The notes under the pieces: model-generated
What the model saw: only the letters and a program-made list of their open reading frames with translations
What the model was told of the DNA's origin: nothing
Databases searched by the model: none
Made by a program: the position numbers and the translations under genes
Part shown: in pieces, positions 12,484 through 56,047 of the stretch
Layout of the letters: every line of letters starts with the position of its first letter
Position numbering within the stretch: position 1 is the stretch's first letter
From: Desulfuromonadales bacterium
Lineage (GTDB): Bacteria > Desulfobacterota > Desulfuromonadia > Desulfuromonadales > SZUA-540
Direction: 5' to 3'
NCBI GenBank assembly: GCA_033549025.1
Contig: JAWSUS010000007.1
Coordinates: forward strand, 1-64,000
Length of the DNA: 64,000 nucleotides

Positions 12484-12529
12484 CTAAGGAACGGACCGCT
12501 CAGGCGGGCCGGCCCATCAGGGAGGTAAC

Positions 12530-13006
12530 ATGGTGAACCGATTCTTGCTGGCTCTTGATCCCTCACCCCATTCTCGTCAGGCCGCTGAATACCTCGCCGC
12601 CATTGCCGGTCAACTCAAGGGCAGCCAGGTCGTGCTGTTGAGTGTTCTGCCCACTTGGCCATCCGGCGTGAGCAGTCCGGTCACCGATGAGCCCGTCATG
12701 CTGACCGGGGAAGTTCATGGCGGGGAGGACGCCGGCGAACGGCTCGGCCAGGCCCAGGCATTCATGGCGGAGATCGTCGCGCTGTTTCAGCATCGCGGCC
12801 TCGAGGCGGACCGGATTCAGCGTCTCATCGTTCCCCAGGACAAGGGCGTCGCCGAAGACATCGTCGCCGCGGCCGAGAAGCACGAATGCGACACGGTGGT
12901 GGTGGGGCGGCGGGATCTTTCGGCCGTGCAGTCCATCTTTCTCGGCAGTGTCTCGTCCGAGCTCGTCAAAAATCTGGAGGGGCGCACGGTCTGGGTGGTG
13001 GAATAG
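12530..13006 (+). CDS. Universal stress protein
   Basis: LLALDPS, DTVVVGRR, LGSVS and TVWVV motifs. Confidence 0.9.
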   Translation: MVNRFLLALDPSPHSRQAAEYLAAIAGQLKGSQVVLLSVLPTWPSGVSSPVTDEPVMLTGEVHGGEDAGERLGQAQAFMAEIVALFQHRGLEADRIQRLIVPQDKGVAEDIVAAAEKHECDTVVVGRRDLSAVQSIFLGSVSSELVKNLEGRTVWVVE

Positions 13007-13036
13007 CAACGCGCCAAGCTTCCTCTCCGCACATTT

Positions 13037-14167
13037 ATGAAAGCCCTCTATCTCCACATCCCCTTCTGTCTGCGCAAGTGCCCTTACTGCGATTTTTTTT
13101 CGGTCACCCGAACATCCCCTCTCTTTCAGGAATTCCCCCGACTGCTGATGGCCCATCTGCGTCTGCAGGCTGAACGGGACCAGGCCGGCCCTTTTTCCAC
13201 CGTCTTTTTCGGCGGCGGCACCCCTTCGCTGCTGAGCCCGTCCTCCGTGGAGGCGATCCTGGCGGAGGTGGATCGTCTGTTCGGCCTCGAGGCCGAGGCG
13301 GAGGTGACCCTCGAGGCCAACCCCGGCACCCTGAGTCTCGACATTCTCTCTGGTTTCAGGGCGGCCGGAATCAATCGGCTCTCCCTGGGGCTGCAATCCC
13401 TCCGGGATGACAAGCTCCAGACGCTAGGGCGTCTGCATACGGCGGCAGAAGGCCGGCAGGCGGTAGGGTGGGCCAGGCAGGCGGGATTTGACAACCTGTC
13501 CTGCGACCTCATGTTCGGCCTGCCAGCGCAGTCGCTGTCCCAGTTGATGGCTGATGTGGAAGCCGTCCTCTCCCTGCAGCCCGAACATCTCTCCTGTTAT
13601 GGCCTGACCGTGGAAGAGGGCACCCCTTTTGAAGAACTGCAGCGCCAGGCGTTGCTGCACCCGGCCGCCGAAGACCTCGCCACCGAAATGTATGTGGCGC
13701 TGCATGAACGCCTGAGCGGCGCCGGCTACGACCACTATGAGATTTCCAACTACGCCCGGCCGGGGCACGCCTGCCGGCACAATCAGGTTTACTGGCGGCG
13801 CCAGGGTTATCTCGGCCTGGGGCCTGGCGCCCACAGTTTCAGCGACCAGGGCTGGGGGGAGCGTTGGGAGGTCCCCCCGGATATCGGCCGCTATGCCCGG
13901 GCCCTGAAGGAGGGGCGGGATCCGCGAACCCACCTCGAGACCTTTGACCGGCGCGGGGCCATGGCCGAAACCCTTTACCTCGGCCTGCGCGAGGCAGCGG
14001 GAGTCGACGAGGCGTGTTTCAGGGCGCGCTTTGGTCAGGGCGTAGCCGAGGCCTATCCCACCGCGGTACGCAAGGCGTCACCCCATCTGCTTTACGAAAA
14101 CGGGCGTTGGTATTTTGCCCTGTCAGGCTGGCTTCTCTACGATCATCTCATTCAGAATTTCCTGTAA
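13037..14167 (+). CDS. hemW: Radical SAM heme chaperone HemW (HemN-like)
   Basis: YLHIPFCLRKCPYCDF, GGGTPS, YEISNY and HNQVYW motifs; lies upstream of hrcA. Confidence 0.9.
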   Translation: MKALYLHIPFCLRKCPYCDFFSVTRTSPLFQEFPRLLMAHLRLQAERDQAGPFSTVFFGGGTPSLLSPSSVEAILAEVDRLFGLEAEAEVTLEANPGTLSLDILSGFRAAGINRLSLGLQSLRDDKLQTLGRLHTAAEGRQAVGWARQAGFDNLSCDLMFGLPAQSLSQLMADVEAVLSLQPEHLSCYGLTVEEGTPFEELQRQALLHPAAEDLATEMYVALHERLSGAGYDHYEISNYARPGHACRHNQVYWRRQGYLGLGPGAHSFSDQGWGERWEVPPDIGRYARALKEGRDPRTHLETFDRRGAMAETLYLGLREAAGVDEACFRARFGQGVAEAYPTAVRKASPHLLYENGRWYFALSGWLLYDHLIQNFL

Positions 14168-42467: not shown

Positions 42468-43910
42468 TTACTCGCCCCGCAGTTTTCGAAGGACCTCCGG
42501 ATTTTCTTCATCTTCAGCCAGAATGACATGACAGGTCATGCAGTCGCCGGAAATCGTCTGACCATCCTCGCTTTCGTGCATGTCGTCATGGCAGCGAAAG
42601 CAGCCAATATCAAAGTTTTCCCCATGCCCAATATGATTGATGTAGGTGTTCCAGGCAATATTCATGCTGGGCCAGACGTTTTGTCGGTAGGCCGCCTGGG
42701 TTCCGCGTATGGCTGTCTGCAGCCATTGGGGTTTAGACGCCAACAGGTCGGGGTATCGTTCTTTGTACCAGGTCGTCAGGCGCTCGGCGATGGCGGTTTC
42801 CGCTTCATCCTGGCTGGTGTAGCTGGCGGTGATGGCGACAAGAGCCTGCTCCTTGATGAAAGGCAATTGTCTGGGAATCGCGCCGGAGAGGAGCTTTTCA
42901 TCCAGGGCCGCCTCTGGGCTGCGATAAATGTGAGTGGGCCGATTGTGGCAATCGATACAATCCATCTCTCTTGTTTCCAGGTGTTCCGTATCTTCTTGGG
43001 TGCCTGAACGGAAAACGGTCTGGGTGCCGTCGGCCCGGGTCAGGGTGACTACCGGTATAGTCAGGCGTTTTTCGTCGGATTGATAAGTAATGGTGTTTTC
43101 AGGCGCAACGTGCCAGTGGATGCCGTGGGCATTTTCTGTCAGGTTTCCCGCCGAGCCGATTTTCATCAGCATTACCGTCTGAACGTGGGTGTTTTTGTCG
43201 TCAGCCAGGAACTTGTCGTTGACGATGAGTTTTTCGCCGTGGAACTTTTCGGGCTGATGGCATTCTTCGCAGGTTTCGCGGGCGGGGCGCAAGCCATGAA
43301 CCGGCGTCGCAATCGGACGCGGATAGGTGTCGAGAGCGACGGCGAACAACTGCCTGGCCCCGGATATTTTAGACTTCACGAACCAGGTGGCACCAGAGCC
43401 GATATGGCACTCTACACAGTTGACCCGCGAGTGGGGGGAATTTTGGTAGGCGGTATATTCCGGTTCCATGACTGTGTGGCAGAACTTGCCGCAAAAGGCA
43501 TTGGATTCGAGGTAGTGATAGCCGCTGTAGCCGAGCAGGGAAAAGATGAAAAGGTTGGCACCGGTCAGAAAGATGCCGAGAAAAATGAGTTTGCGTACGC
43601 GGGCAAACCGCGTTTCGTCCGTAAAATGTTCTTTCAGGTAATCCAGCGTAAAAAGACGGACCTCCTCTTTCCCCTTCAGGAAAAACAGGCCCACAAAGAC
43701 CATTGCCAGTCCCCCCATGAAGGCGGGCCCGAGAATCATGTAAATGATGGCCCCCATGTAGGGATTGTCAATGTGCCACAGGGAATCGATTATCACCAGT
43801 CCGAGCAGAAAAGGGAATACCGCCGTGGTGATAATGGCTCCGACCAGAGAAACTCTGCTGCGAGCTATGCCTTTAAAAAATGCATCCAGGATGTTTTTCA
43901 GGTTTCCCAT
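42468..43910 (-). CDS. Inner-membrane NapC/NirT-type multiheme cytochrome c, ImcH-like
   Basis: Three N-terminal TMs; CGKFCH, CVECH, CEECH, CIDCH, CFRCH and CMTCH; GATWFVKSKISG. Confidence 0.8.
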   Translation of the reverse strand: MGNLKNILDAFFKGIARSRVSLVGAIITTAVFPFLLGLVIIDSLWHIDNPYMGAIIYMILGPAFMGGLAMVFVGLFFLKGKEEVRLFTLDYLKEHFTDETRFARVRKLIFLGIFLTGANLFIFSLLGYSGYHYLESNAFCGKFCHTVMEPEYTAYQNSPHSRVNCVECHIGSGATWFVKSKISGARQLFAVALDTYPRPIATPVHGLRPARETCEECHQPEKFHGEKLIVNDKFLADDKNTHVQTVMLMKIGSAGNLTENAHGIHWHVAPENTITYQSDEKRLTIPVVTLTRADGTQTVFRSGTQEDTEHLETREMDCIDCHNRPTHIYRSPEAALDEKLLSGAIPRQLPFIKEQALVAITASYTSQDEAETAIAERLTTWYKERYPDLLASKPQWLQTAIRGTQAAYRQNVWPSMNIAWNTYINHIGHGENFDIGCFRCHDDMHESEDGQTISGDCMTCHVILAEDEENPEVLRKLRGE

Positions 43911-44155: not shown

Positions 44156-44377
44156 TTAAAATCCTGAAATGGCACTGAACCAACCTTGGGCGAGGCCGAT
44201 AGGGCCTCCGGCGGCGATAGCCCCCCCCACGAGACAGGCAATTCCCCAGATGCCGATCAGGGCGGCGAAGGCCAGGGTCAGAATAAAGGAGACCCTGAAG
44301 GTGATTCTCATCAAAACCAGGCCCAGTTGCGAATGAACCTTTTCTTGGACTTGAACAGCAGCCTGAACGTTGCTCAT
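44156..44377 (-). CDS. 73-aa membrane microprotein with a W-x3-C-x2-GG motif
   Basis: AAGGAG RBS; MSNVQ...LIGIWGIACLVGGAIAAGGPIGLAQGWFSAISGF. Confidence 0.75.
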   Translation of the reverse strand: MSNVQAAVQVQEKVHSQLGLVLMRITFRVSFILTLAFAALIGIWGIACLVGGAIAAGGPIGLAQGWFSAISGF

Positions 44378-44898: not shown

Positions 44899-45060
44899 AT
44901 GAAGACAGCCTATCAGGTCAGGGCAGGAAAAGCGGTAACCAATTACCTTGCTTCCGCTAGCATGATTGGACTTTCCATTGCAGTCGGACTGGCAGTTTCA
45001 AGCGCTTTGGTTGCAGCTCTTTGGGCTCCGATGACCGTAGTGTTAAGCGGTCTCTTCTAG
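44899..45060 (+). CDS. 53-aa hydrophobic microprotein (not in ORF track)
   Basis: AGGAG RBS; MKTAYQVRAGKAVTNYLASASMIGLSIAVGLAVSSALVAALWAPMTVVLSGLF; terminator follows. Confidence 0.7.
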   Translation: MKTAYQVRAGKAVTNYLASASMIGLSIAVGLAVSSALVAALWAPMTVVLSGLF

Positions 45061-45097
45061 TTTTTGTTTTAAGCGCAAAGCGGCGACTACGATATCG

Positions 45098-45130
45098 AAC
45101 CTCCCCAGGGTCTCCTGGGGAGGTTTTTTT
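45098..45130 (+). terminator. Intrinsic terminator after the 53-aa microprotein
   Basis: AACCTCCCCAGG-GTCT-CCTGGGGAGGTT plus a T-tract. Confidence 0.8.
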
Positions 45131-45505
45131 GTGTGAATATGGCGCTTCGCTGAGCCTTGGGGCCACCCTGTGTCAACTGTGACCCACCGGTGAAACCTGT
45201 ACCTTTAAATCCTCCTGATTTAGGTAGTTTATTATTGCAATAATTCAAACACTGTGATAAAAACCGCTGCATCTGCAACACTCCTCACCACCCTTTAAAT
45301 GCTCTGCAAATTATATATGTTAATAAAAACAGCTTGTTAGATGCGTTGCGCGGCGCTGTGCAACATGTTGGCAGTGCGCAACGAATGGCGAGCTAAAAAC
45401 GCGCGGGGACCAAAATTTGGCTTAGGCTAGGAGTGGGGCTGTACGCCGGGTTTCCGTAAAGACTTTTCAGGTTAGTCAACAAATAGGTGGAAAGGGAAGG
45501 AAGTT

Positions 45506-46726
45506 ATGGATCAGATGCCAAAAACCCAGAGAATGACCTTGAATGAGATTGAAAGCATTGTCTCCGGACGACTGCTTTCCGGTGGTGCCGGATATTATTT
45601 TGGCGTCATCATTTCCGCGCTACTGGTCGTGGCAGCGCTCGTAGCCGGTGTTCACTCCTTTATTGTTGGACATGAGCACACTTACGGGGTAACCAGAGAG
45701 GTGCCCTGGGGGATTCTCATTGCGACTTATGTCTTCTTTGTCGTCACTTCCACGGGACTCTGTCTCGTGTCCTCGATCGGGCATGTTTTTGGAGTCGAGT
45801 CCTACATGCCGATAGCCAAGCGGTCGGTCTTTCTCTCCATCGCGACCATTCTGGCTGGATTTTTTGTTATTGCCTTCGAAATTAAAATCCCTTGGCGGAT
45901 GGCGATTTACAATGTCATTTCTCCCAACATCACCTCCAATATCTGGTGGATGGGTACACTCTACGGGGTTTACCTTGTCCTGATGATATTTGAGTTTCTC
46001 TTCCTCAACCTGAACAAACACAAACTGGCGGTGGCCATGGGTTTCGGTGGCGCGGTTGCTGGTATCGCCGCGCACAGTAACCTCGGCGCCGTTTTTGGCC
46101 TCCTTATGGGCCGCGAGTTCTGGCACGGTCCCTACATGTCCATTTACTTCATCGCTTCGGCCATGATGACCGGTACCGCCGTAATTTTTCTTTTCCACTA
46201 TCTTGCCTACAAGGTTAACGGCGAAGACCTGAGCCTTGATGGACCGATGGTGGCCTCCCTGGATGTGGTACGTCGCCTCGGGATCCTCCTCATCTGCGTC
46301 ATCATATTCTTCACAACCTGGAAAATGGTTGCTGGTGTTGCCGGCATGCCCGGTGGCAAGTACGAAGCGGTCATGGCTCTGGTCAAAGGGCCCTACGCCA
46401 TTAACTTCTGGCTGTTTGAGGCAGGGTTCGGCCTGATCTTCCCGCTGCTCCTTTTCATTCTCTCCAAGGGTAAAAACCTGATGATGATGTTCGTTGGGTC
46501 GGCGATGATGATTGTCGGTATTTTTATCATGCGCTACGACCTGGTGATCGTCGGCCAGATTGTTCCGGTTTATCATGAGCTCGGCGTCAATGAGTTCAGC
46601 CACCTCCTGTCCTACACCCCCTCCTTCCACGAGATCATTATCACTTTGGGTGGTTTTGGGGTGGCGTTCTTTCTCTTCCTGGTGGGAGAGAAGCTCTTTG
46701 CCGGACACAAAGTCGAACATCATTGA
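45506..46726 (+). CDS. NrfD/PsrC-family quinol oxidoreductase membrane subunit (CbcU-like)
   Basis: VPWGILIATYVFF, SNIWWM and MRYDLVIVGQ motifs; about 10 TMs. Confidence 0.85.
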   Translation: MDQMPKTQRMTLNEIESIVSGRLLSGGAGYYFGVIISALLVVAALVAGVHSFIVGHEHTYGVTREVPWGILIATYVFFVVTSTGLCLVSSIGHVFGVESYMPIAKRSVFLSIATILAGFFVIAFEIKIPWRMAIYNVISPNITSNIWWMGTLYGVYLVLMIFEFLFLNLNKHKLAVAMGFGGAVAGIAAHSNLGAVFGLLMGREFWHGPYMSIYFIASAMMTGTAVIFLFHYLAYKVNGEDLSLDGPMVASLDVVRRLGILLICVIIFFTTWKMVAGVAGMPGGKYEAVMALVKGPYAINFWLFEAGFGLIFPLLLFILSKGKNLMMMFVGSAMMIVGIFIMRYDLVIVGQIVPVYHELGVNEFSHLLSYTPSFHEIIITLGGFGVAFFLFLVGEKLFAGHKVEHH

Positions 46727-46772
46727 TGAGTTTCAGGTCTACTAGCGATAAGCATTTGAAGGAGAATATAGC

Positions 46773-47528
46773 ATGAAGAAAAATAAGGTCGAATTCGACG
46801 GCTTGCAGAATGAAGGAGTGGAGAATGCTCCCGTAGAGGATCGACGTCGTTTTCTGAAAATGGGCCTTGCCCTCACCGGTGTCTTTGCCGGCGGTACCCT
46901 TTACTCCGCCACCTCGGCGGTAAACAAGGTTTATGCTTCAGCTGGCGAGTATGCCAAGAAATATCCGTACAAGCCTCATTACAGCATGATCATGCACCAG
47001 GATCGTTGTATTGACTGCGAGCGCTGCATGGCGGCTTGTGTCAAGACCAATAATGTGCCCGAGTATGGTTACCGAACGACGATCCTCGAAAGAGAAGTCA
47101 AGGATGCCGTTGGCCAAAAGCGGGAATTTATTCCCGTCCTTTGCAATCACTGCAACCTTCCCCAGTGCACCAGGGTTTGCCCGACCCGGGCTACGTATAA
47201 AGATAAAGCCACCGGCATCGTCATGATGAACGCCGCTAAATGTATCGGGTGTTTGACCTGTCAGCAAGGGTGCCCCTACAATGCGCGCTATTTCAGCGAG
47301 GAAAAACATGCGGTCGACAAATGCAATTTCTGCATCGATACGCGACTGTCCAAAGGCGAGACCCTGACGGCCTGCTCTGAAGCCTGCCCTGCTGATGTCA
47401 GGGTGTTTGGTGACCTTTCGGATCCCAATAGCCGTATTTACCGTGAGGTTCATCAGATCGAGAAAACCGTCTGGGTTCTGCGGCCTGAGGCCGGTACGCG
47501 ACCCAATGTTTTCTATACTCGCGGCTAA
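46773..47528 (+). CDS. Tat-exported NrfC/PsrB-like 4Fe-4S protein (CbcT-like)
   Basis: RRRFLK Tat motif; four Cys clusters (CIDCERC, CNHC...C...CP, CIGCLTC...CP, KCNFC...C...CP). Confidence 0.9.
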   Translation: MKKNKVEFDGLQNEGVENAPVEDRRRFLKMGLALTGVFAGGTLYSATSAVNKVYASAGEYAKKYPYKPHYSMIMHQDRCIDCERCMAACVKTNNVPEYGYRTTILEREVKDAVGQKREFIPVLCNHCNLPQCTRVCPTRATYKDKATGIVMMNAAKCIGCLTCQQGCPYNARYFSEEKHAVDKCNFCIDTRLSKGETLTACSEACPADVRVFGDLSDPNSRIYREVHQIEKTVWVLRPEAGTRPNVFYTRG

Positions 47529-47587
47529 AGACTCGAGCCTGATTCCCAAAGGCTCTGACCCCATTTGTGAATAGCGGAGGTTTAATC

Positions 47588-48229
47588 ATGAATAAGTTCA
47601 TGTTGCGCGCATTTGGCGCCATATTGTTGACGTTGTTGGCGACGGCTCCGGCCCTTTGGGCCGAGGAAGAAGATTTTGGCGGTCCGGAGATCGCCTATGA
47701 GCAGCCGGTCAAAGGGGTATCTTTCAGCCACAAAACGCATGTGGGTGACTACGGTTTCTCCTGCGACAGCTGTCATGACGGTATCTTTGACATGATGGTC
47801 GGCGCCGCCTATGAAAATGGCGACTTTACGATGGACAGCCTGTATCAGGGCAAATACTGTGGCGCCTGCCACGACGGGTCCATGGCTTTTGCCGCCAATA
47901 CCCAGTGTGCCTCCTGCCATGTGCAGGATGGTGGCGATGTTATCTATACCGAGCCGGTCAAAGGGGTTCTTTTCAGCCATGATGTTCACGGCCAGGTCGG
48001 GCTGGATTGCGCCAGTTGTCACGATGGGCTCTTTGAAATGCGCTCTCTTGCTGCCCAGGAAAATGCCAACTTTGTCATGGAGGCTCTCTACGAGGGCGAG
48101 TATTGCGGCGCCTGCCATGACGGTTCTATGGCGTTTGCCTCCGATACCCAATGTGCGACCTGTCATATTGGCGTCAAGGGATTGCGTCGCGCTACTGGTT
48201 CCGCAACAAAAGAGCAAGCCGCTCACTAA
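47588..48229 (+). CDS. Periplasmic hexaheme cytochrome c (two tandem c7-type repeats)
   Basis: Signal peptide; six CxxCH motifs in two similar halves (PVKGV.FSH...CGACHDGSMAF...TQCA.CH). Confidence 0.9.
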   Translation: MNKFMLRAFGAILLTLLATAPALWAEEEDFGGPEIAYEQPVKGVSFSHKTHVGDYGFSCDSCHDGIFDMMVGAAYENGDFTMDSLYQGKYCGACHDGSMAFAANTQCASCHVQDGGDVIYTEPVKGVLFSHDVHGQVGLDCASCHDGLFEMRSLAAQENANFVMEALYEGEYCGACHDGSMAFASDTQCATCHIGVKGLRRATGSATKEQAAH

Positions 48230-48285: not shown

Positions 48286-48486
48286 ATGGCAGAGCCGAAA
48301 AGACTGGCGCTAAAACTTATCCGGTTTGTGGTTATCATGATAGTCGCCTCTGTCATGACGGCGGCCGTGCTGATTCTCGCTGTGCCCGACCTGGGCAAAT
48401 GGCCCACGGTTATAAGCGCAGTGGGGATCGCCCTTCTCGTCGCCATGTATGATATGGGTCTCTTTAAGGGCGACTTTGAAATCTGA
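48286..48486 (+). CDS. Small two-TM hypothetical protein
   Basis: 66-aa ORF with two hydrophobic segments, co-oriented with its neighbours. Confidence 0.55.
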   Translation: MAEPKRLALKLIRFVVIMIVASVMTAAVLILAVPDLGKWPTVISAVGIALLVAMYDMGLFKGDFEI

Positions 48487-48576: not shown

Positions 48577-49911
48577 TTGCTTATGCCCAAAGTAGACCAC
48601 TGTAAACAGTTGACTGTCATATTGAACAGCGTCGCCGACGGTGTCTTCACCGTTGACGATCGTATGCGGATTACCCTTTTCAATAAGGCGGCCGAGGAAA
48701 TTACGGGGTTTACCGAAGAAGAGGCGATGGGCAGGCATTGCCATGATATTTTCCGCACGGATGTCTGCTTTACGTCCTGTCCCGTCAAGGAAGCCCTGGA
48801 ATCCGGCCAGCCCGTTATAAACCGCGAAGTTGATATCATCACGAAGGAGGGGAAGAAGGTCCCCATCTCGATCAGTGCCTCGGTGCTGAAGGATGAAAAT
48901 GGTAAGCCTCTCGGCGGTGTGGAAACCTTTCGGGACCAATCCCTTATCTACGCCCTCAAAAAAGAGATAGAAGAAAAATACACCTTTCATGATCTGGTCA
49001 GTCGCAATCCCGCTATGCGACGTCTTTTCGATGTGCTGCCCGATATTGCCTCCAGTGAAGCGACCGTGTTGCTAAAAGGAGAAAGCGGGACCGGAAAAGA
49101 ACTTTTTGCGCAGGCCATTCATGATTTAAGTCCCAGGCGCAAGGGGCCTTTGGTCATTGTCAATTGTGGGGCTCTGCCCGAGCCTCTTCTTGAGGCTGAA
49201 ATATTCGGGGCCCGGCGAGGAGCCTATACCGGGTCCATCGAAAATCGCCCAGGACGCCTGGAGATGGCGGAGGGAGGCACTCTTTTTCTTGATGAAATTG
49301 GCGATCTGCCTCTCCCTTTGCAGGTTAAGCTGCTGCGGGTCCTCGAGAACCATGAATATCAGCCCCTGGGAGCGAGAAGCCCACAGAAGGCCGATGTCCG
49401 TTTTCTCACGGCGACAAACTGCGACCTCGAAGATATGGTTGAAAAAGGAACTTTCCGCCGGGACCTGTTTTTTCGCATCAATGTAGTGGCTTTGCAGATT
49501 CCGCCTCTACGTGAGCGTCCGGAGGATATTCCTTTATTGATCGATGTTTTCCTTGACCGTTTTAATCGGACCTACGGGAAGAAGATCAGGGGATTTTCTG
49601 GAGAGGCACTCCAGCTTTTACTTAGTCATCAATATCCCGGCAACGTCCGGGAGTTGCTTAATCTTGTGGAGCAGACGGTTATCCTCTGTCGGAGCGGAGA
49701 AATTGGCGTTGAACATCTTCCGGCCGGTTTCCTTGAGGCCAGCGACCGTGATGAAGATGTCAGCTTCGGGAGACGAAGTCGGATCAATAAAGCCATTCTT
49801 CAAGATCTGCTTGCCCGCTACGAGGGGAACCGGACCAAGGTGGCCAAGGAATTGGGAGTGGATCGAACCACCTTGTGGCGATGGATGAAAAAATTTGATT
49901 TAAGTAGCTAG
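48577..49911 (+). CDS. PAS-domain sigma54-dependent activator, OrpR-like
   Basis: PAS with C-x8-C-x3-C; GESGTGKE; GAYTGS loop; FLDEIG; PGNVREL; C-terminal HTH (LGVDRTTLWR). Confidence 0.9.
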   Translation: MLMPKVDHCKQLTVILNSVADGVFTVDDRMRITLFNKAAEEITGFTEEEAMGRHCHDIFRTDVCFTSCPVKEALESGQPVINREVDIITKEGKKVPISISASVLKDENGKPLGGVETFRDQSLIYALKKEIEEKYTFHDLVSRNPAMRRLFDVLPDIASSEATVLLKGESGTGKELFAQAIHDLSPRRKGPLVIVNCGALPEPLLEAEIFGARRGAYTGSIENRPGRLEMAEGGTLFLDEIGDLPLPLQVKLLRVLENHEYQPLGARSPQKADVRFLTATNCDLEDMVEKGTFRRDLFFRINVVALQIPPLRERPEDIPLLIDVFLDRFNRTYGKKIRGFSGEALQLLLSHQYPGNVRELLNLVEQTVILCRSGEIGVEHLPAGFLEASDRDEDVSFGRRSRINKAILQDLLARYEGNRTKVAKELGVDRTTLWRWMKKFDLSS

Positions 49912-49934
49912 ACTTTCAAGCCAAACAAAAAAAT

Positions 49935-49972
49935 AGAGCGCGTCTTCCTTTCAGGAAGACGCGCTTTTTTTT
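49935..49972 (+). terminator. Intrinsic terminator after the activator gene
   Basis: AGCGCGTCTTCCT-TTC-AGGAAGACGCGCT plus a T-tract. Confidence 0.8.
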
Positions 49973-49986
49973 ATGTCTGGCGGGTG

Positions 49987-50128
49987 TGCAACAATCCTGT
50001 TGCAGTCATTTGGCGTTGCATTAAGCAACATGTTGCAAATATGTTGCAACGATAGACTGTGGCGCTAAAAGGGCCCTTGCCGAGGGTCTGGACAATTGCA
50101 GGATGCATCAGTGTTGCAGGGCGCAACA
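49987..50128. promoter_or_regulatory. Cluster of YGTTGC-N5-GCAACA palindromes (putative upstream activator sites)
   Basis: CGTTGCATTAAGCAACA at 50014-50030, TGTTGCAGGGCGCAACA at 50112-50128, and extra TGTTGCA half-sites. Confidence 0.6.
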
Positions 50129-50225
50129 TGAGGGTTGAGTTAAATTCTGAGTCAAGCAAGAGATTAGCCAATGTAAGTCCCCGAATACACTATAAAAAAT
50201 CAAATAAATTTATAAAAACTGTTTT

Positions 50226-50241
50226 TGGCACAACTCTTGGA
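50226..50241 (+). promoter_or_regulatory. Putative sigma54 promoter (-12 variant)
   Basis: TGGCACAACTCTTGGA versus consensus TGGCACG-N4-TTGCW; correct spacing. Confidence 0.6.
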
Positions 50242-50279
50242 ATACTAGAGATCAAACAACAGCGGCACGGAGATAAGCC

Positions 50280-50639
50280 ATGGGAAGTCAAAATCTTAGA
50301 ACGAAATCGGGTGAAAAAATAGCAGTGCCCTACTACGGAGCCCTGGTAAGACCTAAATCTGGCTTTGAGAGTCTCTATCTTGTTGCAGATGTTGCAGCAG
50401 GAACAACTACAGCGTTGCAATTTGAGGTTTGCGTCTGGGATAAAAACAGGCGACCTAAAATAGCCGAGTGGTTGCAAGAGATAGGGGTAAAAGGCGTAAT
50501 TTGCAGCGACGAAAAAGTGGAAATGGAAGAACTTTTGGCCTGTGAAGGGATCTGGTTGGAAAAAGGCAAAATGGGAGATGCTACAGACCTGGTAGCCATG
50601 TATGTCAACAGTATTAATAGCATCGGAAACATTAACTAA
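50280..50639 (+). CDS. Divergent NifX/ORP-fold-like protein, paralog 1
   Basis: GGAG RBS; KIAVP start and WLQEIGVKGVIC...LACEGI pattern; paralog of 51712..52092. Confidence 0.6.
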   Translation: MGSQNLRTKSGEKIAVPYYGALVRPKSGFESLYLVADVAAGTTTALQFEVCVWDKNRRPKIAEWLQEIGVKGVICSDEKVEMEELLACEGIWLEKGKMGDATDLVAMYVNSINSIGNIN

Positions 50640-50658
50640 CAGCAAAGGAAGGTGTCTT

Positions 50659-50802
50659 ATGAGAGTCGAAAACAGCAAAAGCAAGCCGGTAAGTGACAAG
50701 TATCTTCGAAACACTCTGATGGCCATGGGCGTGGTCGCACTGTCTGCCAGCCTTTACGTAGCTTGGCCAGCCCTGGTCCATCTGGGCAGTAAAATGATTT
50801 AA
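50659..50802 (+). CDS. 47-aa membrane microprotein (Trp36 family)
   Basis: AAGGAAGG RBS; MRVENSKSKPVSDKYLRNTLMAMGVVALSASLYVAWPALVHLGSKMI. Confidence 0.75.
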   Translation: MRVENSKSKPVSDKYLRNTLMAMGVVALSASLYVAWPALVHLGSKMI

Positions 50803-50853
50803 GACGATCATTCAAAAAGCATTTAAAAAAACCTTTAAAAAACGGAGGACATT

Positions 50854-51015
50854 ATGAGAACCGAGAATCTTATCACTGATCCGATCAAAGCCACCTACAA
50901 ATATGGCGTCTATAGTGCAATGGGCTTCGTTGGACTCAGTCTTGCGGCCTTTATCGCTTGGTCCTTTACCTGCGCCGGCGGTGCCTTGGTCGAAGTGATT
51001 GGCAAAATGGTGTAG
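50854..51015 (+). CDS. 53-aa membrane microprotein (Trp36 family)
   Basis: GGAGG RBS; MRTENLITDPIKATYKYGVYSAMGFVGLSLAAFIAWSFTCAGGALVEVIGKMV. Confidence 0.85.
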   Translation: MRTENLITDPIKATYKYGVYSAMGFVGLSLAAFIAWSFTCAGGALVEVIGKMV

Positions 51016-51049
51016 CAGATCAAATAAACTTACAGGATAGGAGGCAGCT

Positions 51050-51211
51050 ATGAAAACCGAAAACATTATAAGTGAACCCATCAAAACAACGTATAAGGTT
51101 GGCGTTTACAGTTCTGTGGCCTTTGTAGGTATTTTCCTGGCAGCCTTCATATCCTGGTCTTTCTGCTGTGCGGGCGGCGCTATTATCGAAGGATTGAGCA
51201 AGCTGATTTAA
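51050..51211 (+). CDS. 53-aa membrane microprotein (Trp36 family)
   Basis: GGAGG RBS; MKTENIISEPIKTTYKVGVYSSVAFVGIFLAAFISWSFCCAGGAIIEGLSKLI; 33/53 identical to the previous ORF by hand count. Confidence 0.85.
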   Translation: MKTENIISEPIKTTYKVGVYSSVAFVGIFLAAFISWSFCCAGGAIIEGLSKLI

Positions 51212-51252
51212 GAGGGTAGAAAAAAGTTTAAGAGAACGACAGAAAGGGGGCG

Positions 51253-51414
51253 GTGATGATGTTGTACACAGGTAATAAACCAATAGGTTTGGGAGCTGGT
51301 ATTGGAATGCTTGCCGCGCTTGTGTTCATAGGGTTTATCACCTCCCTCTTTCTGCTGTGGTCGGTGTCCTGTATTGGTGGGGGCGCAATTGTCCTGGCGG
51401 GTGGATTTTGCTGA
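51253..51414 (+). CDS. 52-53-aa membrane microprotein (Trp36 family)
   Basis: AAAGGGGG RBS; GTG 51253 or ATG 51256; (M)MMLYTGNKPIGLGAGIGMLAALVFIGFITSLFLLWSVSCIGGGAIVLAGGFC. Confidence 0.75.
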   Translation: MMMLYTGNKPIGLGAGIGMLAALVFIGFITSLFLLWSVSCIGGGAIVLAGGFC

Positions 51415-51447
51415 GAATGCTTTAGGGCGTGTAGCGCCAGCGGCGGG

Positions 51448-51570
51448 TGTTGCAAAAAACAAGCAATGCATCAATTGTTGCACTTAAGTGAAACGCTTAA
51501 GTGGCCCATCTGCAAATAAAAACAAGATGGCCAGCCGCGTAGACTCATACGACATGTTGCAAATGTAACG
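51448..51570. promoter_or_regulatory. Second cluster of TGTTGCA-type activator sites
   Basis: TGTTGC at 51448 and 51476; TGTTGCAAATGTAACG at 51555-51570. Confidence 0.5.
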
Positions 51571-51663
51571 TCTGAAATTGGCCATATTTAAAGCGTCATA
51601 AGAAACAAGAGTCTAAGTAGCCGAAATCAAATCGGAATAAGAATTGGAAGAAATCTTAACTTA

Positions 51664-51679
51664 TGGCATGACTTTTGGA
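51664..51679 (+). promoter_or_regulatory. Putative sigma54 promoter (-12 variant)
   Basis: TGGCATGACTTTTGGA; same spacing and same TTGGA variant as at 50226. Confidence 0.6.
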
Positions 51680-51711
51680 GTAGGTGAGAGACGGTAGAAA
51701 AGAGGGGGTCT

Positions 51712-52092
51712 ATGAGAGCTGAAAATAGTGTAACCAAGCCCCTTTCAGGTGTTTATAGACACTTGTTGGAAAAAGACGAGTGCAATCGAATCGCCATCCC
51801 CTACTACGGCGCCATCATGAGGCCGGGGGTAGGTGTCGAGAAGCTTTATTTTATTGCGGATGTTGACAAGAAAAACTCATCTTTGAAGCGCGTGTTTCTG
51901 GAGGTATGGAATTCGAAGATTTCACCAGAACTCCCAAGCTGGTTACGTGATAAGGGTGTGAGTGGGCTGGTCTGCCGGGATGGTTGTCAGAGTTATCTTC
52001 AGCCGATGGAAGCAGCTGGAATCAAAGTGCTGTTGGACAAGGCCCTTGATCTTGCCTGGATTGAAGGTATGGCTACAACATCACGAAGATAG
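51712..52092 (+). CDS. Divergent NifX/ORP-fold-like protein, paralog 2, with an N-terminal extension
   Basis: RIAIPYYGAIMRP...VW...WLRDKGVSGLVC...AAGIKV aligns with 50280..50639. Confidence 0.65.
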   Translation: MRAENSVTKPLSGVYRHLLEKDECNRIAIPYYGAIMRPGVGVEKLYFIADVDKKNSSLKRVFLEVWNSKISPELPSWLRDKGVSGLVCRDGCQSYLQPMEAAGIKVLLDKALDLAWIEGMATTSRR

Positions 52093-52141
52093 AGTGCTGG
52101 TTAACCAAAGATGAATGTTATTGAGCAAGAGGTGGAACGAC

Positions 52142-52573
52142 GTGAGGATCGCCATTACAGCCAGAGGGTCCCACCCTTCCAGTGAAGTTGACGAATGTTT
52201 TGGACGGGCCTATTGGGTTTTGATTTTTGAGACCAAAACCGGAAATTATACGGCAATCAATAATTCAGAAATTCGAAATTCCCAGGAAAATGCGGGAGTC
52301 AAAGCGGCAAAACTGCTTGAGAATAAGAAGGTCGATGTATTGTTGACTGGGGAAACTGGCCCGAAAGCTTTCAGATCCTTGGTCGAAAAGGGAATAAAGG
52401 TGTTCCATGGAGCGTCTGGTTCAGTCGAGGAGGCCTTGAACACCTGGCTCAGAGGGGAGATGAAAGAGGCTGAACACGCCAATAGCCCAGGTAGTCCTTA
52501 TTGCCTGGTTGTTCAATCAAAAACAACGCAGGTCGATGCACCTAAGGTTCTGCTTGACCTGCTGAAGACATAG
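52142..52573 (+). CDS. NifB/NifX-family (orange protein/MTH1175-like) cofactor-binding protein
   Basis: RIAITA...VDECFGRA...AGVKAA...VLLTGETGPKAF...GIKV; GTG start after GAGG. Confidence 0.85.
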   Translation: MRIAITARGSHPSSEVDECFGRAYWVLIFETKTGNYTAINNSEIRNSQENAGVKAAKLLENKKVDVLLTGETGPKAFRSLVEKGIKVFHGASGSVEEALNTWLRGEMKEAEHANSPGSPYCLVVQSKTTQVDAPKVLLDLLKT

Positions 52574-52622
52574 AAAGGTTTTTCCGCCGCATTCCCAAAA
52601 GGCGGAAACCATGGAGGTGAAT

Positions 52623-52784
52623 ATGAAAAAACACCAAAAATTCTTTAAGGTCCTGAATTCATTTTACAGAATCGGTTTATACAATATTGTCGCGGCCATG
52701 GTTGTGTGGTGCTCGATTTTTGTCATCTGGTCGATTGTCAACTTTGTCGTGACCTCAAAAGTGGGCACGGGTGTTTTTATTTAA
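52623..52784 (+). CDS. 53-aa membrane microprotein (Trp36 family)
   Basis: GGAGGTG RBS; MKKHQKFFKVLNSFYRIGLYNIVAAMVVWCSIFVIWSIVNFVVTSKVGTGVFI. Confidence 0.8.
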   Translation: MKKHQKFFKVLNSFYRIGLYNIVAAMVVWCSIFVIWSIVNFVVTSKVGTGVFI

Positions 52785-52810
52785 GTTCATTGAATATTGA
52801 GGTTATTTGA

Positions 52811-52972
52811 ATGAAAACACAGTTCGTTCTTCCCATTGAAATCAGGCACGTTTTTAAAATCGGCCTTTTCATCGTTATATCAATGATTGGGCTTGCCGTG
52901 TCTGTCTTCATTCTTTGGGCGGTTTTTTGTATGGGGAGCGCCTGCATTCAGGTGCTGGCCACTGGCCATTAG
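52811..52972 (+). CDS. 53-aa membrane microprotein (Trp36 family)
   Basis: GAGG RBS; MKTQFVLPIEIRHVFKIGLFIVISMIGLAVSVFILWAVFCMGSACIQVLATGH. Confidence 0.8.
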   Translation: MKTQFVLPIEIRHVFKIGLFIVISMIGLAVSVFILWAVFCMGSACIQVLATGH

Positions 52973-53087
52973 CCGACTGTGCTCTTTGGTAAATAAAGAG
53001 GCTGATCAGGAAATTAGGCAATAGTAAAGAGACCTGGCTTCTCGATTCGATAAGTTGATCTCTAAATTTTTTGTGCTAAATGATGAA

Positions 53088-53855
53088 ATGAACCACTTAT
53101 CCGGACCTATAGATTTTTGGACCACGGATTTATTCCAGAGTAATAAATCAGCGGACAGTGTTCCTGGAAACGAATGTCCATGTTGCGGATCCATTAAAAT
53201 TTATGCTCTGGGTGATGGCCGGAAAAAATGTGGGATTTGTGGGAAAAAGTTCAGTCAAACTGCCAGAAAAAGGCGAATTTCCAAGGTTCTGTTAAGGCAG
53301 GTGGTTGAGCAGTTCGTTGCCATGGTGCCGGCAAAGCAGGCCGCTGGAGTTGTTGGGGTAAATCATAAAACGGCCCTAAGGGTTTACAGGGATATACGGA
53401 GGGCTCTGGTCCGAAAAAATCAGCAATTGGCCCTCCGGTATATGGAGGAATGTCAGTCGACGACAGATATTTTCGCCTGTAGCCCTGGAGAGGAGACTCT
53501 TCCGTTATTTGCTGTGGCAATTCAGAACCAGAAAATAGTGCTCTTACCTGCTCGATACCAAGGGTCGTGGATCAAGGTTCATTTCCCTGCTTCGGTAATT
53601 TATGCTGATCGCATGACAGCGATGACCCTTGATTTTGAAAACTTTGATCAAAAAACGCTTGGAAGCCACGCGGCATCATGGCCTGTAAAACCCTGGTTTT
53701 TTTGGCCTTATGCCAAGGAGCAATTCAAGATTTATCACGGCGGAATGAAGGTCAACTTTTGGCTTTTTTTGCACGAAATGGCCTTTCGATTCAATTTTTC
53801 CCTTTCTGGCGATCAAGAGGAGGGCATCATCGATGACCTTGTCGCCTGTTTATAG
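53088..53855 (+). CDS. IS1595-family transposase-derived protein, catalytically degenerate
   Basis: Zn ribbon CPCC...CGIC, HTH-like segment, VIYAD, and FW..AK...YHG...FLHEMAFRFN. The start codon is uncertain. Confidence 0.65.
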   Translation: MNHLSGPIDFWTTDLFQSNKSADSVPGNECPCCGSIKIYALGDGRKKCGICGKKFSQTARKRRISKVLLRQVVEQFVAMVPAKQAAGVVGVNHKTALRVYRDIRRALVRKNQQLALRYMEECQSTTDIFACSPGEETLPLFAVAIQNQKIVLLPARYQGSWIKVHFPASVIYADRMTAMTLDFENFDQKTLGSHAASWPVKPWFFWPYAKEQFKIYHGGMKVNFWLFLHEMAFRFNFSLSGDQEEGIIDDLVACL

Positions 53856-53909: not shown

Positions 53910-55748
53910 ATGAAGTTCTGCCGAATTCTCACTGTAGTTCTTGGTGTTTGGCTACTGGGTGCTGCTGTTCCTGCCCTGGCCAAAATGGCCCCCGATCCGA
54001 ATGCCTGTCTTCAGTGTCATGAAGATGTGGTATCAGCCGCCGAATTTATGGATTCGGTCCACGGGAAAAATGCCTGTACAAGCTGCCATGTAGAAGTTAC
54101 TGATCTGGATGAGCACTTGGCAGGGAATATTGAAATCAGCCCTGTAAATTGCGCGACCTGTCATTCCAATGAGGATAAAGCCCACGTTGACAGCGTGCAT
54201 GCCGAAAGCGGTATCGGCTGTGTTGAGTGCCACTCGGACATTCATGGCCAGCAAAAAATGGATAGTTCCAAAGTGGCCTTGGTGGAAAAATGCAGTGAGT
54301 GCCACGATGTCGAAAGCTATGTCCAGTCAAGCCATGGTATGGCCATTGCGGCCGGTAAAAATGATTCCGCCGCCTGTAACGATTGTCATGGTGTTCACAA
54401 CATAGCCAGGGTTCCGGACCCGGACACTGCAGAAGGTGGCGCCTTCAAATCAGCACCCTGTATTGCATGCCATGCTGATGAAGAAAAGATGGAGCATGCC
54501 GGGGTCAATGCCCATGCGGTAGAAACTTACCTCGAAAGTTACCATGGAAAGAATTACCGCCTTGGTTTTCCTCAGCAATCCGCCGGCTGCGCCGATTGCC
54601 ACAGTAGTCATGGTGTTCTGCCGCCTAGTCATGCTGAATCAACCATTGGCGAGGCGAAGATCGTCGAAACCTGTGCCACCTGCCATCCTAAAGCCACATC
54701 GCAATTTACCAAATTTTATGCACATGGCGATCATGGCGATCGGGAAAATTACCCGATCATGTATTACACCTTTATCAGTATGACGGGTCTTCTGGTCGGA
54801 ACGTTCGCCGTCTTCTGGATTCACACCCTCCTGTGGATGTTCCGCGGTTTTGTTGAAAACAGACAAAAGGCAGCCGCTCTAGCTGCGGGACACGAAGAAC
54901 ATCATATCTCCGAAGCCCACAAACAATATCGACGGTTTGAAAAACGTCATATTTTCCTGCACCTTACCGTAATAATCAGCTTCCTCGGGCTGTCCCTTAC
55001 CGGTTTGCCTCTGAAATTTGCTGATCAGCCTTGGGCCCAAACCATGATGTCGTTCTTTGGTGGGGTCCATTATGCTGGCCTTATTCATCGAGGGTGCGCG
55101 ATCCTGACCTTCTATTATTTCGTCGGCGCCATCCTGATGAGCATCGACTTCCTGTTTGTTCGCAAGGACATTAAAGCTCATCCCTTTGTCAGGCTGTTCG
55201 GCCCGGACTCTTTGATGCCAAACTTCCGGGATGTCCGCGATGTGACCGCGATGGTGCGCTGGTTCTTTTTCAAAGGGCCCAAGCCGACTTTTGAGCGGTG
55301 GACTTACTGGGAAAAATTCGATTTCCTCGCGGTCTTTTGGGGTATGTTTGCCATCGGCGGTTCCGGTCTGTTGCTGTGGTTTCCGGAAATTTTCGGCACC
55401 TTCCTGCCGGGCTGGATGTTCAACGTGGCGACCATCATACATTCCGATGAAGCGCTGTTGGCCACCGGGTTTATTTTTACTGTTCACTTCTTCAACACCC
55501 ATGGCCGTCCCGAAAAGTTCCCCATGGATTTTGTAATCTTCAATGGGCAAATGTCCAAAGAGGAATTTGTTGAAGAGCGTGGCGATCAATGGAAGCGTTA
55601 CGAAGAGGAAGGTACGACGGAGAATTACGTTGTCACCAAACCCAGCGGGGTGTTGTATGACTTCTTCTTCAAAGGATTTGGTTTCCTCGCCTTCTTCACG
55701 GGAATCACCCTGGCCATCCTGATGCTCTACGCATTTATCAGCGGATAG
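53910..55748 (+). CDS. cbcL: CbcL-type inner-membrane c/b cytochrome (9-heme c domain plus cytochrome b domain)
   Basis: Nine CxxCH motifs, then TM helices with LTGLPLKF, YWEKFDFLAVFWG, IIHSDEALLA and VHFFN. Confidence 0.85.
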   Translation: MKFCRILTVVLGVWLLGAAVPALAKMAPDPNACLQCHEDVVSAAEFMDSVHGKNACTSCHVEVTDLDEHLAGNIEISPVNCATCHSNEDKAHVDSVHAESGIGCVECHSDIHGQQKMDSSKVALVEKCSECHDVESYVQSSHGMAIAAGKNDSAACNDCHGVHNIARVPDPDTAEGGAFKSAPCIACHADEEKMEHAGVNAHAVETYLESYHGKNYRLGFPQQSAGCADCHSSHGVLPPSHAESTIGEAKIVETCATCHPKATSQFTKFYAHGDHGDRENYPIMYYTFISMTGLLVGTFAVFWIHTLLWMFRGFVENRQKAAALAAGHEEHHISEAHKQYRRFEKRHIFLHLTVIISFLGLSLTGLPLKFADQPWAQTMMSFFGGVHYAGLIHRGCAILTFYYFVGAILMSIDFLFVRKDIKAHPFVRLFGPDSLMPNFRDVRDVTAMVRWFFFKGPKPTFERWTYWEKFDFLAVFWGMFAIGGSGLLLWFPEIFGTFLPGWMFNVATIIHSDEALLATGFIFTVHFFNTHGRPEKFPMDFVIFNGQMSKEEFVEERGDQWKRYEEEGTTENYVVTKPSGVLYDFFFKGFGFLAFFTGITLAILMLYAFISG

Positions 55749-55816: not shown

Positions 55817-56047
55817 ATGGCAAATAAACAGGGAATCGGTTTGGCTGTAGTCGCTTTTGCCCTTTATATCATCGGTGGAGTCAGTACTTTCGGTGGGCTC
55901 ATTCTTATGGGAATGATGCGGGACCAAAATGTGCTGGGGTGGGGCGATGGTACCGGTATCGGCAGTCTTTTTCTCGCTGCCGGACTGTGCCTTTCCATTC
56001 TTGGTGTTCTGCTTATGCGACTTTTCCGCAACAGGGGCTTTGCTTGA
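55817..56047 (+). CDS. Small two-TM membrane protein downstream of cbcL
   Basis: AAGGAG RBS; 76 aa, hydrophobic. Confidence 0.7.
   Translation: MANKQGIGLAVVAFALYIIGGVSTFGGLILMGMMRDQNVLGWGDGTGIGSLFLAAGLCLSILGVLLMRLFRNRGFA

Follow-up and report, generated by a model that had tools for sequence, protein, structure and literature searches.

The stretch of DNA examined here (the window) comprises positions 1 to 64,000 of contig 7 (JAWSUS010000007.1) of a Desulfuromonadales bacterium (GCA_033549025.1), the genome of which is 3.39 Mb in length and 100% complete by markers. The locus of interest is an inner-membrane cluster of putative quinol oxidase genes, imcH, cbcUTS and cbcL, within which a PAS domain activator of sigma54-dependent transcription is followed by two tandem units (Table 1). 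Each unit consists of GTTGC/GCAAC half-sites, a sigma54-type promoter, a gene for a protein with an IAxPYYG motif (IAx) resembling Orp7 of the orange protein (ORP) operons of Desulfovibrio vulgaris Hildenborough (DvH), and cargo genes for small membrane proteins (microproteins). This overall layout, set out in a preliminary description of the same DNA, was found in the window and is conserved among relatives; the setting, previously called an extracellular electron transfer island, is better described from the architectures of the flanking genes as an inner-membrane cluster.

Table 1. Features of the imcH-cbcUTS-cbcL locus, with positions in the window (UAS, upstream activating sequence; dN/dS, ratio of nonsynonymous to synonymous substitution rates)
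Feature	Position	Strand	Basis or remark
imcH-type inner-membrane cytochrome	42468..43910	-	NapC/NirT domain, one CX3CH and five CXXCH
m8, small membrane protein upstream of imcH	44156..44377	-	dN/dS 0.05-0.1; kept in 4/15 loci
m7, probable distant microprotein family member	44899..45060	+	L041 and L048 orthologs are family members; window copy gave no score
Third GTTGC half-site cluster, before cbcU	45275..45382		No sigma54 element
cbcUTS/Cbc4-like operon	45506..48229	+	NrfD, 4Fe-4S protein and six-heme c7 cytochrome
NrfD (cbcU position)	45506-46726	+	Domain content
4Fe-4S protein (cbcUTS operon)	46773-47528	+	Domain content
Six-heme c7 cytochrome (cbcUTS operon)	47588-48229	+	Heme motifs
PAS-AAA+-HTH sigma54 activator	48577..49911	+	PAS, Sigma54_activat and HTH_8 domains; GAYTGS loop
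UAS1	49988..50127		Nine GTTGC/GCAAC half-sites in two blocks; count compared with shuffles
Sigma54-type promoter 1	50226..50240	+	TGGCAC-N5-TTGG; -12 TTGG in place of TTGC
IAxA, diverged Orp7-position NifB/NifX-fold protein	50280..50639	+	Profile comparisons
m1, WP type	50659-50802	+	Unit 1
m2	50854-51015	+	Unit 1
m3	51050-51211	+	Unit 1
m4	51253-51414	+	Unit 1
UAS2	51448..51570		Three exact and further degenerate half-sites; half-site count, conserved positions
Sigma54-type promoter 2	51664..51678	+	TGGCAT-N5-TTGG; -12 TTGG
IAxB, second Orp7-like protein	51712..52092	+	Profile comparisons
Orp8/orange protein-like NifB/NifX protein	52115..52573	+	PF02579; Orp8 match
m5	52611-52784	+	Unit 2
m6	52811-52972	+	Unit 2
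Weak hairpin and T-run, then conserved TTTTTGTG...CGGACC element	53027..53108	+	Before IS-derived gene
IS1595-derived Zn-ribbon/HTH protein	53055..53855	+	DDE broken, no terminal inverted repeats, single copy
cbcL-type bc cytochrome	53910..55748	+	Nine CXXCH and b-type membrane domain

The domain content of the activator agrees with its earlier assignment. Its PAS domain carries the motif C55-x-D57-x6-C64-x3-C68, with spacing identical to that of C52/D54/C61/C65 of OrpR, residues reported to be required for redox sensing in DvH (PMC8359166; statements about published systems, here and below, refer to the accessible parts of the cited sources). Among 23 enhancer-binding protein-like open reading frames (ORFs) of the genome, only this activator has the cysteine motif, and among 20 contact loops parsed only this one has a tyrosine (GAYTGS), a loop variant reported to be tolerated in DvH (PMC4641369). 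The family of PAS-Cys activators is present in 219 of 401 genomes of the phylum, and the clade of the window activator gave 88 matches of at least 525 bits in 76 of 301 genomes of the class. A DvH-type OrpR sequence was taken from a metagenome contig (L179) that matches the published orp promoters; the published primer for DVU2106 was rejected as a route to OrpR, being located in a conserved AAA+ motif and yielding 30 unrelated loci. The window activator is 48% identical to the L179 protein, and in a careful tree of 61 rows, including two non-Cys outgroups, both fall within a 59-row OrpR family (support 100/99), the window activator belonging to a 19-row clade (100/99) without the DvH-type OrpR, which forms a long branch. 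One genome (G016) carries both types. By phylogeny, the activator is a PAS-Cys protein of the OrpR family but not an ortholog of DVU2106, so that the previously proposed grouping with OrpR holds for the family and not for the subclade. From its motif and by analogy to OrpR of DvH, the activator is predicted to hold a [4Fe-4S] cluster, which likely serves to sense low redox potential, the condition under which it would activate.

Two further observations concern activators of other loci. The contact loop has decayed in the orthologs at L223:7994-9433 (G110, GGYGNR) and L232:8081-9598 (G269, GPDGDG), which are located directly before the IS-derived gene and cbcL without an IAx gene or a sigma54 promoter and may have become repressors or relics. 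Seven activators (L049, at 11837-13558, L050, L051, L130, L194, L204 and L205) have two tandem Cys-bearing PAS domains and lie downstream of cbcL.

The count of half-sites in UAS1 was matched by none of 1,000 shuffles; genome-wide, promoter 1 alone has at least four upstream half-sites, and no dense cluster other than UAS1 was found. In 12 non-redundant relatives, half-sites number 80, versus 13.5 +/- 3.6 in shuffles, and they form blocks at about -235 to -170 and -125 to -95; no such excess was found at six control genes. The region upstream of cbcU has four half-sites (18 of 1,000 shuffles), and in six relatives 30 are present versus 5.7; this third cluster is possibly a site of repression or autoregulation. 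The clusters of half-sites are likely to be bound by the activator. The OrpR site of DvH, GGGCGYRTTTTGCGCCC, has three matches in the genome at two mismatches or fewer, none of them on the contig of the window, and a search between enhancer and promoter for an integration host factor consensus gave nothing prominent (one match with one mismatch).

Both of the sigma54-type promoters proposed earlier were found, at 50226 and 51664, and an element of this type precedes all 20 of the IAx genes examined. What is new here is that the -12 element is non-canonical throughout the clade of the activator: the position of the -12 C holds another base in 55 of 59 promoters (pooled from sets of 20/20, 4/4, 24/27 and 7/8), and it is C in all 19 promoters detected for OrpR-family members outside the clade, where 23 loci were examined and four had no detected element. 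Tyrosine occupies the contact loop in 48 of 58 rows of the clade versus none of 15 outside it. The pairing of loop and promoter has exceptions in both directions, a Phe loop with TTGG in L130 and L194 and a Tyr loop with TGC in L235, L236 and L245, and because the clade is one lineage, the Tyr loop and the non-C element are not independent evidence of co-evolution. Of the 27 strict AT-context sigma54-like sites that the genome has, 15 likewise lack the -12 C. A Phe-to-Tyr change in the loop was reportedly the subject of work by Zhang in 2009; the locus offers a natural test of whether Phe or Tyr in the loop and the -12 dinucleotide are matched.

The IAx proteins that head the two units are, as the preliminary description had it, paralogs (40% identical). 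They have no Pfam hit and match the ORP domain of MrpORP weakly. In canonical orp loci, a profile of IAx proteins recovers the gene immediately behind that of the activator, and a profile of these first post-OrpR genes matches IAxA (E 9e-9), IAxB (2e-4) and the DvH-type Orp7 (6e-8), with profile-profile probabilities of 98.6% and 96.1%; the connection between IAx and Orp7 runs only through the intermediate profile, the direct hhalign probability being 1.75%. A first scan of named genomes with IAxB gave no match, and its nearest named homolog is a protein of Desulfuromonas sp. AOP6 (95% identity). The ORP/NifX protein of unit 2, also foreseen, is 32% identical to the DvH-type Orp8 of L179 over 117 amino acids (E 5e-19). 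Since IAxB is Orp7-like and the next protein is Orp8-like, unit 2 starts with orp7-orp8 as in DvH, and by these comparisons the operon heads are of orp7/orp8 origin. The ATPases of orp operons, earlier reported as missing, are indeed absent from the 54 ORFs scanned in the window; family searches of the genome, less 9,464 bases, found neither Orp3/4-type Fe-S ATPases nor MrpORP, none of 13 inspected hits having the 4Fe-4S motif, and the only Mrp of the genome is a stand-alone protein on contig C34. By gene content, the locus is not an ORP complex locus. Matches to NifX and ATPases near C2:53-58 kb were considered as an orp locus and rejected as nif genes. The nif cluster there (C2:46000-58800) includes nifH, D, K, E/N, X, B-like and nifV genes as well as a molybdate transporter, and is unrelated to the orp module.

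Unit 1 encodes four microproteins and unit 2 another two, as first described. The six constitute one paralogous family of 47-57 amino acids, each with a single hydrophobic helix and a Trp that is invariant, divided into WP and WS-x-x-C subtypes. Compared with two genomes of the same genus, dN is far below dS for all six, a mark of purifying selection, and m1 shows no nonsynonymous versus 14-17 synonymous changes. The family has 189 database members, with no Pfam domain in any of the 120 listed, and occurs in 55 of 301 genomes of the class; the named hits of a word-indexed search are of this class only. No relationship to a Pfam, NCBIfam or named Atlas family was found, and literature searches, with subscription journals outside their coverage, returned nothing on the clade of the activator, the microproteins or the pairing of the IS-derived gene with cbcL. 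The microproteins appear to be a membrane family as yet undescribed. Among the small regulators of membrane complexes, single-helix proteins such as CydX and AcrZ resemble them in size (about 50 amino acids or less), in having one helix and in being encoded beside or co-regulated with membrane complexes, but no sequence relationship was found.

At eight loci (L043, L045, L047 and L189-L193), stand-alone pairs of microproteins, with or without IAx, retain 5-8 half-sites and a sigma54 element, which argues that the microproteins are a real output. They are located beside quinol oxidase genes in three gene orders: the first has them before the IS-derived gene and cbcL, the second between imcH and an operon of the NrfD type, and the third between activator and IAx in an activator-microprotein-microprotein-IAx-cbcUTS arrangement (L231). 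In the second of these orders (families f6 and f9) no sigma54 promoter was detected, as for m7 in the window, which has a strong terminator-like hairpin downstream (45097-45126). RNA libraries of two studies yielded contigs over the microproteins, of which one extends from 50661 to 52327, and another contig spans cbcT to the activator, with DNA carry-over possible in each case. A predicted complex of the CbcL membrane domain with m1 and m2 received a score of 0.01 and a mark of 0.32. In f6 (L195, L196, L199, L200 and L202), near-identical pairs of microproteins are present at 2-3 loci per genome, and in L195, L199 and L200 they are preceded by a common sigma70-like promoter with an AT-rich inverted repeat at its flanks, which suggests control by a different regulator.

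The IS1595-derived ORF was originally taken for cargo of unit 2, a placement that was not confirmed. The gene is preceded by a hairpin and by its own upstream element, has no enrichment of half-sites upstream (3 vs 2.7), and abuts or overlaps cbcL: of its 30 matches in 301 genomes (E 4e-44 or better), 29 are directly before cbcL on the same strand, and it overlaps the start of cbcL in 6 of 18 loci and lies at most 54 bp away in 11 more. The protein aligns with IS1595-family (IS1016-like) transposases in the HTH and the C-terminal E..FRFN region, and its Atlas neighbours carry PF12760/PF12762, but it lacks the first D and the E of the DDE triad, which is intact in five full-length IS copies aligned; the triad is incomplete in all nine cbcL-linked copies, whereas the aligned IS copies have inverted repeats as well as the triad. 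The flanks of the window gene share no repeat of at least 7 bp, the genome has one copy of it, and its dN/dS is near 0.18. A role in DNA binding is suggested by the retained Zn ribbon and HTH. The TTTTTGTG...CGGACC element precedes the gene at fixed spacing, also at L223 and L232, where the loop of the activator has decayed; a genome scan for the CGGACC palindrome gave more than 100 loose hits. The most plausible reading of the gene is as a domesticated cbcL partner that has an upstream signal of its own; it is probably not sigma54 cargo of unit 2. In L044 and L046, a 300-nt spacer of multiple hairpins, ending in a long stem and T-run, separates the last microprotein from the IS-derived gene; the L044 spacer has no Rfam match.

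These junctions bear on an alternative in which cbcL is the real output, transcribed from the sigma54 promoter by read-through of the IS-derived gene and so under redox control, unlike the constitutive cbcL of Geobacter sulfurreducens. Consistent with this, 12 of 15 loci have cbcL downstream in the same orientation, the hairpin before the IS-derived gene is weak in the window genome (-9.4 kcal/mol) and in G003 (-8.2), no hairpin was detected in L194, whose microproteins stand immediately before cbcL, some relatives have cbcUTS directly under the same promoter head, and one RNA-library contig joins the IS-derived gene to cbcL. However, terminator-like hairpins of -13 kcal/mol or stronger are present in 9 of 17 junctions between microproteins and the IS-derived gene, the element upstream of that gene is kept where there is no sigma54 promoter (L223, L232), and none of the listed RNA-library contigs bridges m6 and the IS-derived gene. 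Because of the terminators, cbcL as the main cargo was downgraded to an unlikely reading; the IS-derived gene and cbcL are most likely a unit of their own, into which transcription from the microprotein units would read through only in part, if at all.

The cargo behind the activator varies among relatives. At 40 further loci, a head consisting of the activator, half-sites, promoter, IAx and often ORP is followed by Fe-S ATPases and/or Mrp, a nitroreductase, cbcUTS or microproteins; it leads into cbcUTS in nine loci, and no terminator was found in the seven intervening gaps that were checked. In a quick tree of 74 rows, from which near-duplicate rows of the careful tree were left out and for which cargo labels were assigned by hand, a 58-row clade with GAYTG loops (Shimodaira-Hasegawa-like approximate likelihood ratio test support 100) splits into arms of 23 and 35 rows. 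The 23-row arm (support 88) has 14 members with orp ATPase/Mrp, 7 with a nitroreductase and 2 with unknown cargo; the 35-row arm (support 93) has 14 beside cbcL, 11 beside cbcUTS, 10 with other or unknown cargo and none with orp ATPases. Outside the 58-row clade, 14 of 15 rows carry orp-type ATPases. The simplest reading of this tree is a single switch from orp to respiratory cargo, which would be parsimonious because the sister arm still carries orp ATPases. In family f8 (L225, L227, L230, L235-L237 and L245), a nitroreductase-like gene follows the activator-IAx head in six of seven loci, and the canonical -12 GC has been regained in three of the seven. At L040:445-2464 (G259), the enhancer-promoter-IAx-microprotein cassette before the IS-derived gene and cbcL has been independently duplicated in tandem, as in the genus of the window.

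Taken together, the features of the locus could be explained by a mechanism for which the chances seem to us about evenly balanced. The activator would sense low redox potential through its predicted [4Fe-4S] cluster, bind the clusters of GTTGC half-sites and, by analogy to OrpR of DvH, switch on the two duplicated orp7-headed operons at low potential. In these operons the ATPase genes would have been replaced by single-helix membrane microproteins, which may adjust the neighbouring quinol oxidases ImcH, CbcUTS and CbcL; the third half-site cluster may serve to repress the transcript of cbcUTS and the activator. The earlier suggestion of a redox-sensing module rewired to a microprotein output is partly borne out by the OrpR family membership, the orp heads, the loss of ATPases and the phylogeny, and requires amendment in that the activator is not of the DVU2106 group and its enhancer motif is different.

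Several observations weigh against this mechanism. The site cluster announced before each unit stands out from shuffles only for unit 1: the three exact half-sites of UAS2 were reached by 104 of 1,000 shuffles and are weak alone, though at conserved positions. Half-sites are not enriched upstream of imcH (4 vs 2.1), and the two-arm split comes from a quick tree with supports of 88 and 93 and hand-assigned cargo labels. In family f6, 20 of 23 genomes have microproteins but a single one has the activator, and the microprotein copies showed no sigma54/half-site promoter, so the pairing of microproteins with the activator is not obligatory; and since CbcL is found in 249 of 301 genomes of the class and the microproteins in 55, CbcL does not need the microproteins. 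The stand-alone cassettes, moreover, adjoin unrelated genes. This dispersal, the patchy distribution and the strong terminator-like hairpins at 11 of 12 cassette ends checked would also suit generic membrane-stress or toxin-like peptides, close to the oxidases through an inherited neighbourhood and without a functional link, but the proximity to imcH, cbcL or NrfD operons survives three rearrangements and the named hits are confined to this class, which makes such peptides a very unlikely explanation.

All arms retain NifX-fold heads, even where the Fe-S-containing cbcUTS comes next, which is pertinent to another alternative, that the Orp7/Orp8-like proteins and the microproteins are not regulators of electron flow but a reduced kit for delivering cofactors (Fe-S or metal) to membrane complexes or assembling them. 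The reported tie between the ORP complex and Fe-S biogenesis via MrpORP (PMC6345978) fits this idea; against it, the genes lost are precisely those of the Fe-S-carrying ATPases, the stand-alone cassettes often contain microproteins only (L189-L193), and one microprotein subtype has no conserved metal ligand except a His. We regard an assembly kit as improbable. A bolder version of the regulatory mechanism seems similarly doubtful to us: the respiratory chain of Desulfuromonadia would have captured an orp-derived Fe-S sensor on a single occasion, a private sigma54 dialect (the Tyr loop and the non-GC -12 element) would insulate this sensor from other activators, microproteins made at low potential would bind and gate ImcH, CbcL or CbcUTS as a switch between high- and low-potential export routes, and the domesticated IS1595 transposase would be cbcL's own transcription factor.

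The closest published system is OrpR and the orp operons of DvH (PMC8359166, PMC3897727), which share with the window locus the PAS-AAA+-HTH layout, the cysteine triad and aspartate at the same spacing, sigma54 promoters beside the activator gene, orp7-like and then orp8-like first genes, and a site cluster over an upstream region that is not of the sigma54 type, comparable to OrpR autorepression. In DvH, however, the enhancer is GGGCGYRTTTTGCGCCC rather than an array of GTTGC half-sites, the loop is GAFTDA rather than GAYTGS, the -12 element TGC rather than TTGG, and the operons are divergent rather than tandem; they encode the Orp3/4 ATPases and MrpORP, whereas the window has neither, its microprotein cargo being part of a quinol oxidase cluster. 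BccR (GSU0598) of G. sulfurreducens is likewise a sigma54 activator beside an operon for a bc-type quinol oxidase (cbcBA) with small hypothetical genes, induced at low potential (bioRxiv 2021.04.15.440034). The possibility that the window activator is an ortholog of BccR was ruled out by the receiver domain of BccR, in place of which the window activator has a predicted Fe-S PAS domain; the target of BccR is cbcBA, and it is reported to be without effect on imcH or cbcL, both constitutive in G. sulfurreducens (bioRxiv 2021.04.15.440034), where a post-translational gate is suspected (bioRxiv 2022.08.31.506072). The clusters of Desulfuromonas soudanensis and D. versatilis have the same oxidase genes, and the accessible text of their descriptions (PMC4914508, PMC8465243) does not mention a PAS activator, microproteins or a domesticated transposase. 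What sets the locus apart is its capture by a quinol oxidase cluster, an output of undescribed microproteins, a -12 element that is non-canonical across the clade, and a domesticated transposase, which is a clean example of its kind beside a respiratory gene. The locus bears on how metal reducers choose between high- and low-potential quinol oxidases: it supplies a candidate sensor together with its sites and a handful of membrane peptides, in a genus that has a cultured close relative.

The flanking genes were named by architecture and by the reported clustering of such genes. The imcH product has the reported ImcH architecture (N-terminal helices, CX3CH, a NapC/NirT-like region and 5-9 CXXCH; PMC6295460), and the cbcL product has the nine CXXCH and the b-type membrane domain of CbcL; its Val204 corresponds to the conserved V205 by position only, and no full-length relative was found in the PDB. 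In D. soudanensis and D. versatilis, imcH, cbcS and cbcL are reported within a few locus tags of one another (PMC4914508, PMC8465243). The G+C content of the locus is 43-49% in most 500-bp bins, compared to 58% genome-wide, and Rfam gave no match in the window or in four loci scanned. An eight-heme membrane cytochrome that the window lacks is present in the imcH-cbcL neighbourhoods of L200, L206, L223, L228 and L244. The small membrane protein m8 has a W-x-x-x-C-L-x-G-G stretch like the C-terminus of the microproteins and was not scored as a member of their family. Two more conserved small membrane proteins, each with two helices and under purifying selection, flank the central genes: m9 (48286-48486) precedes the activator, and m10 (55817-56047) follows cbcL in nearly all loci seen.

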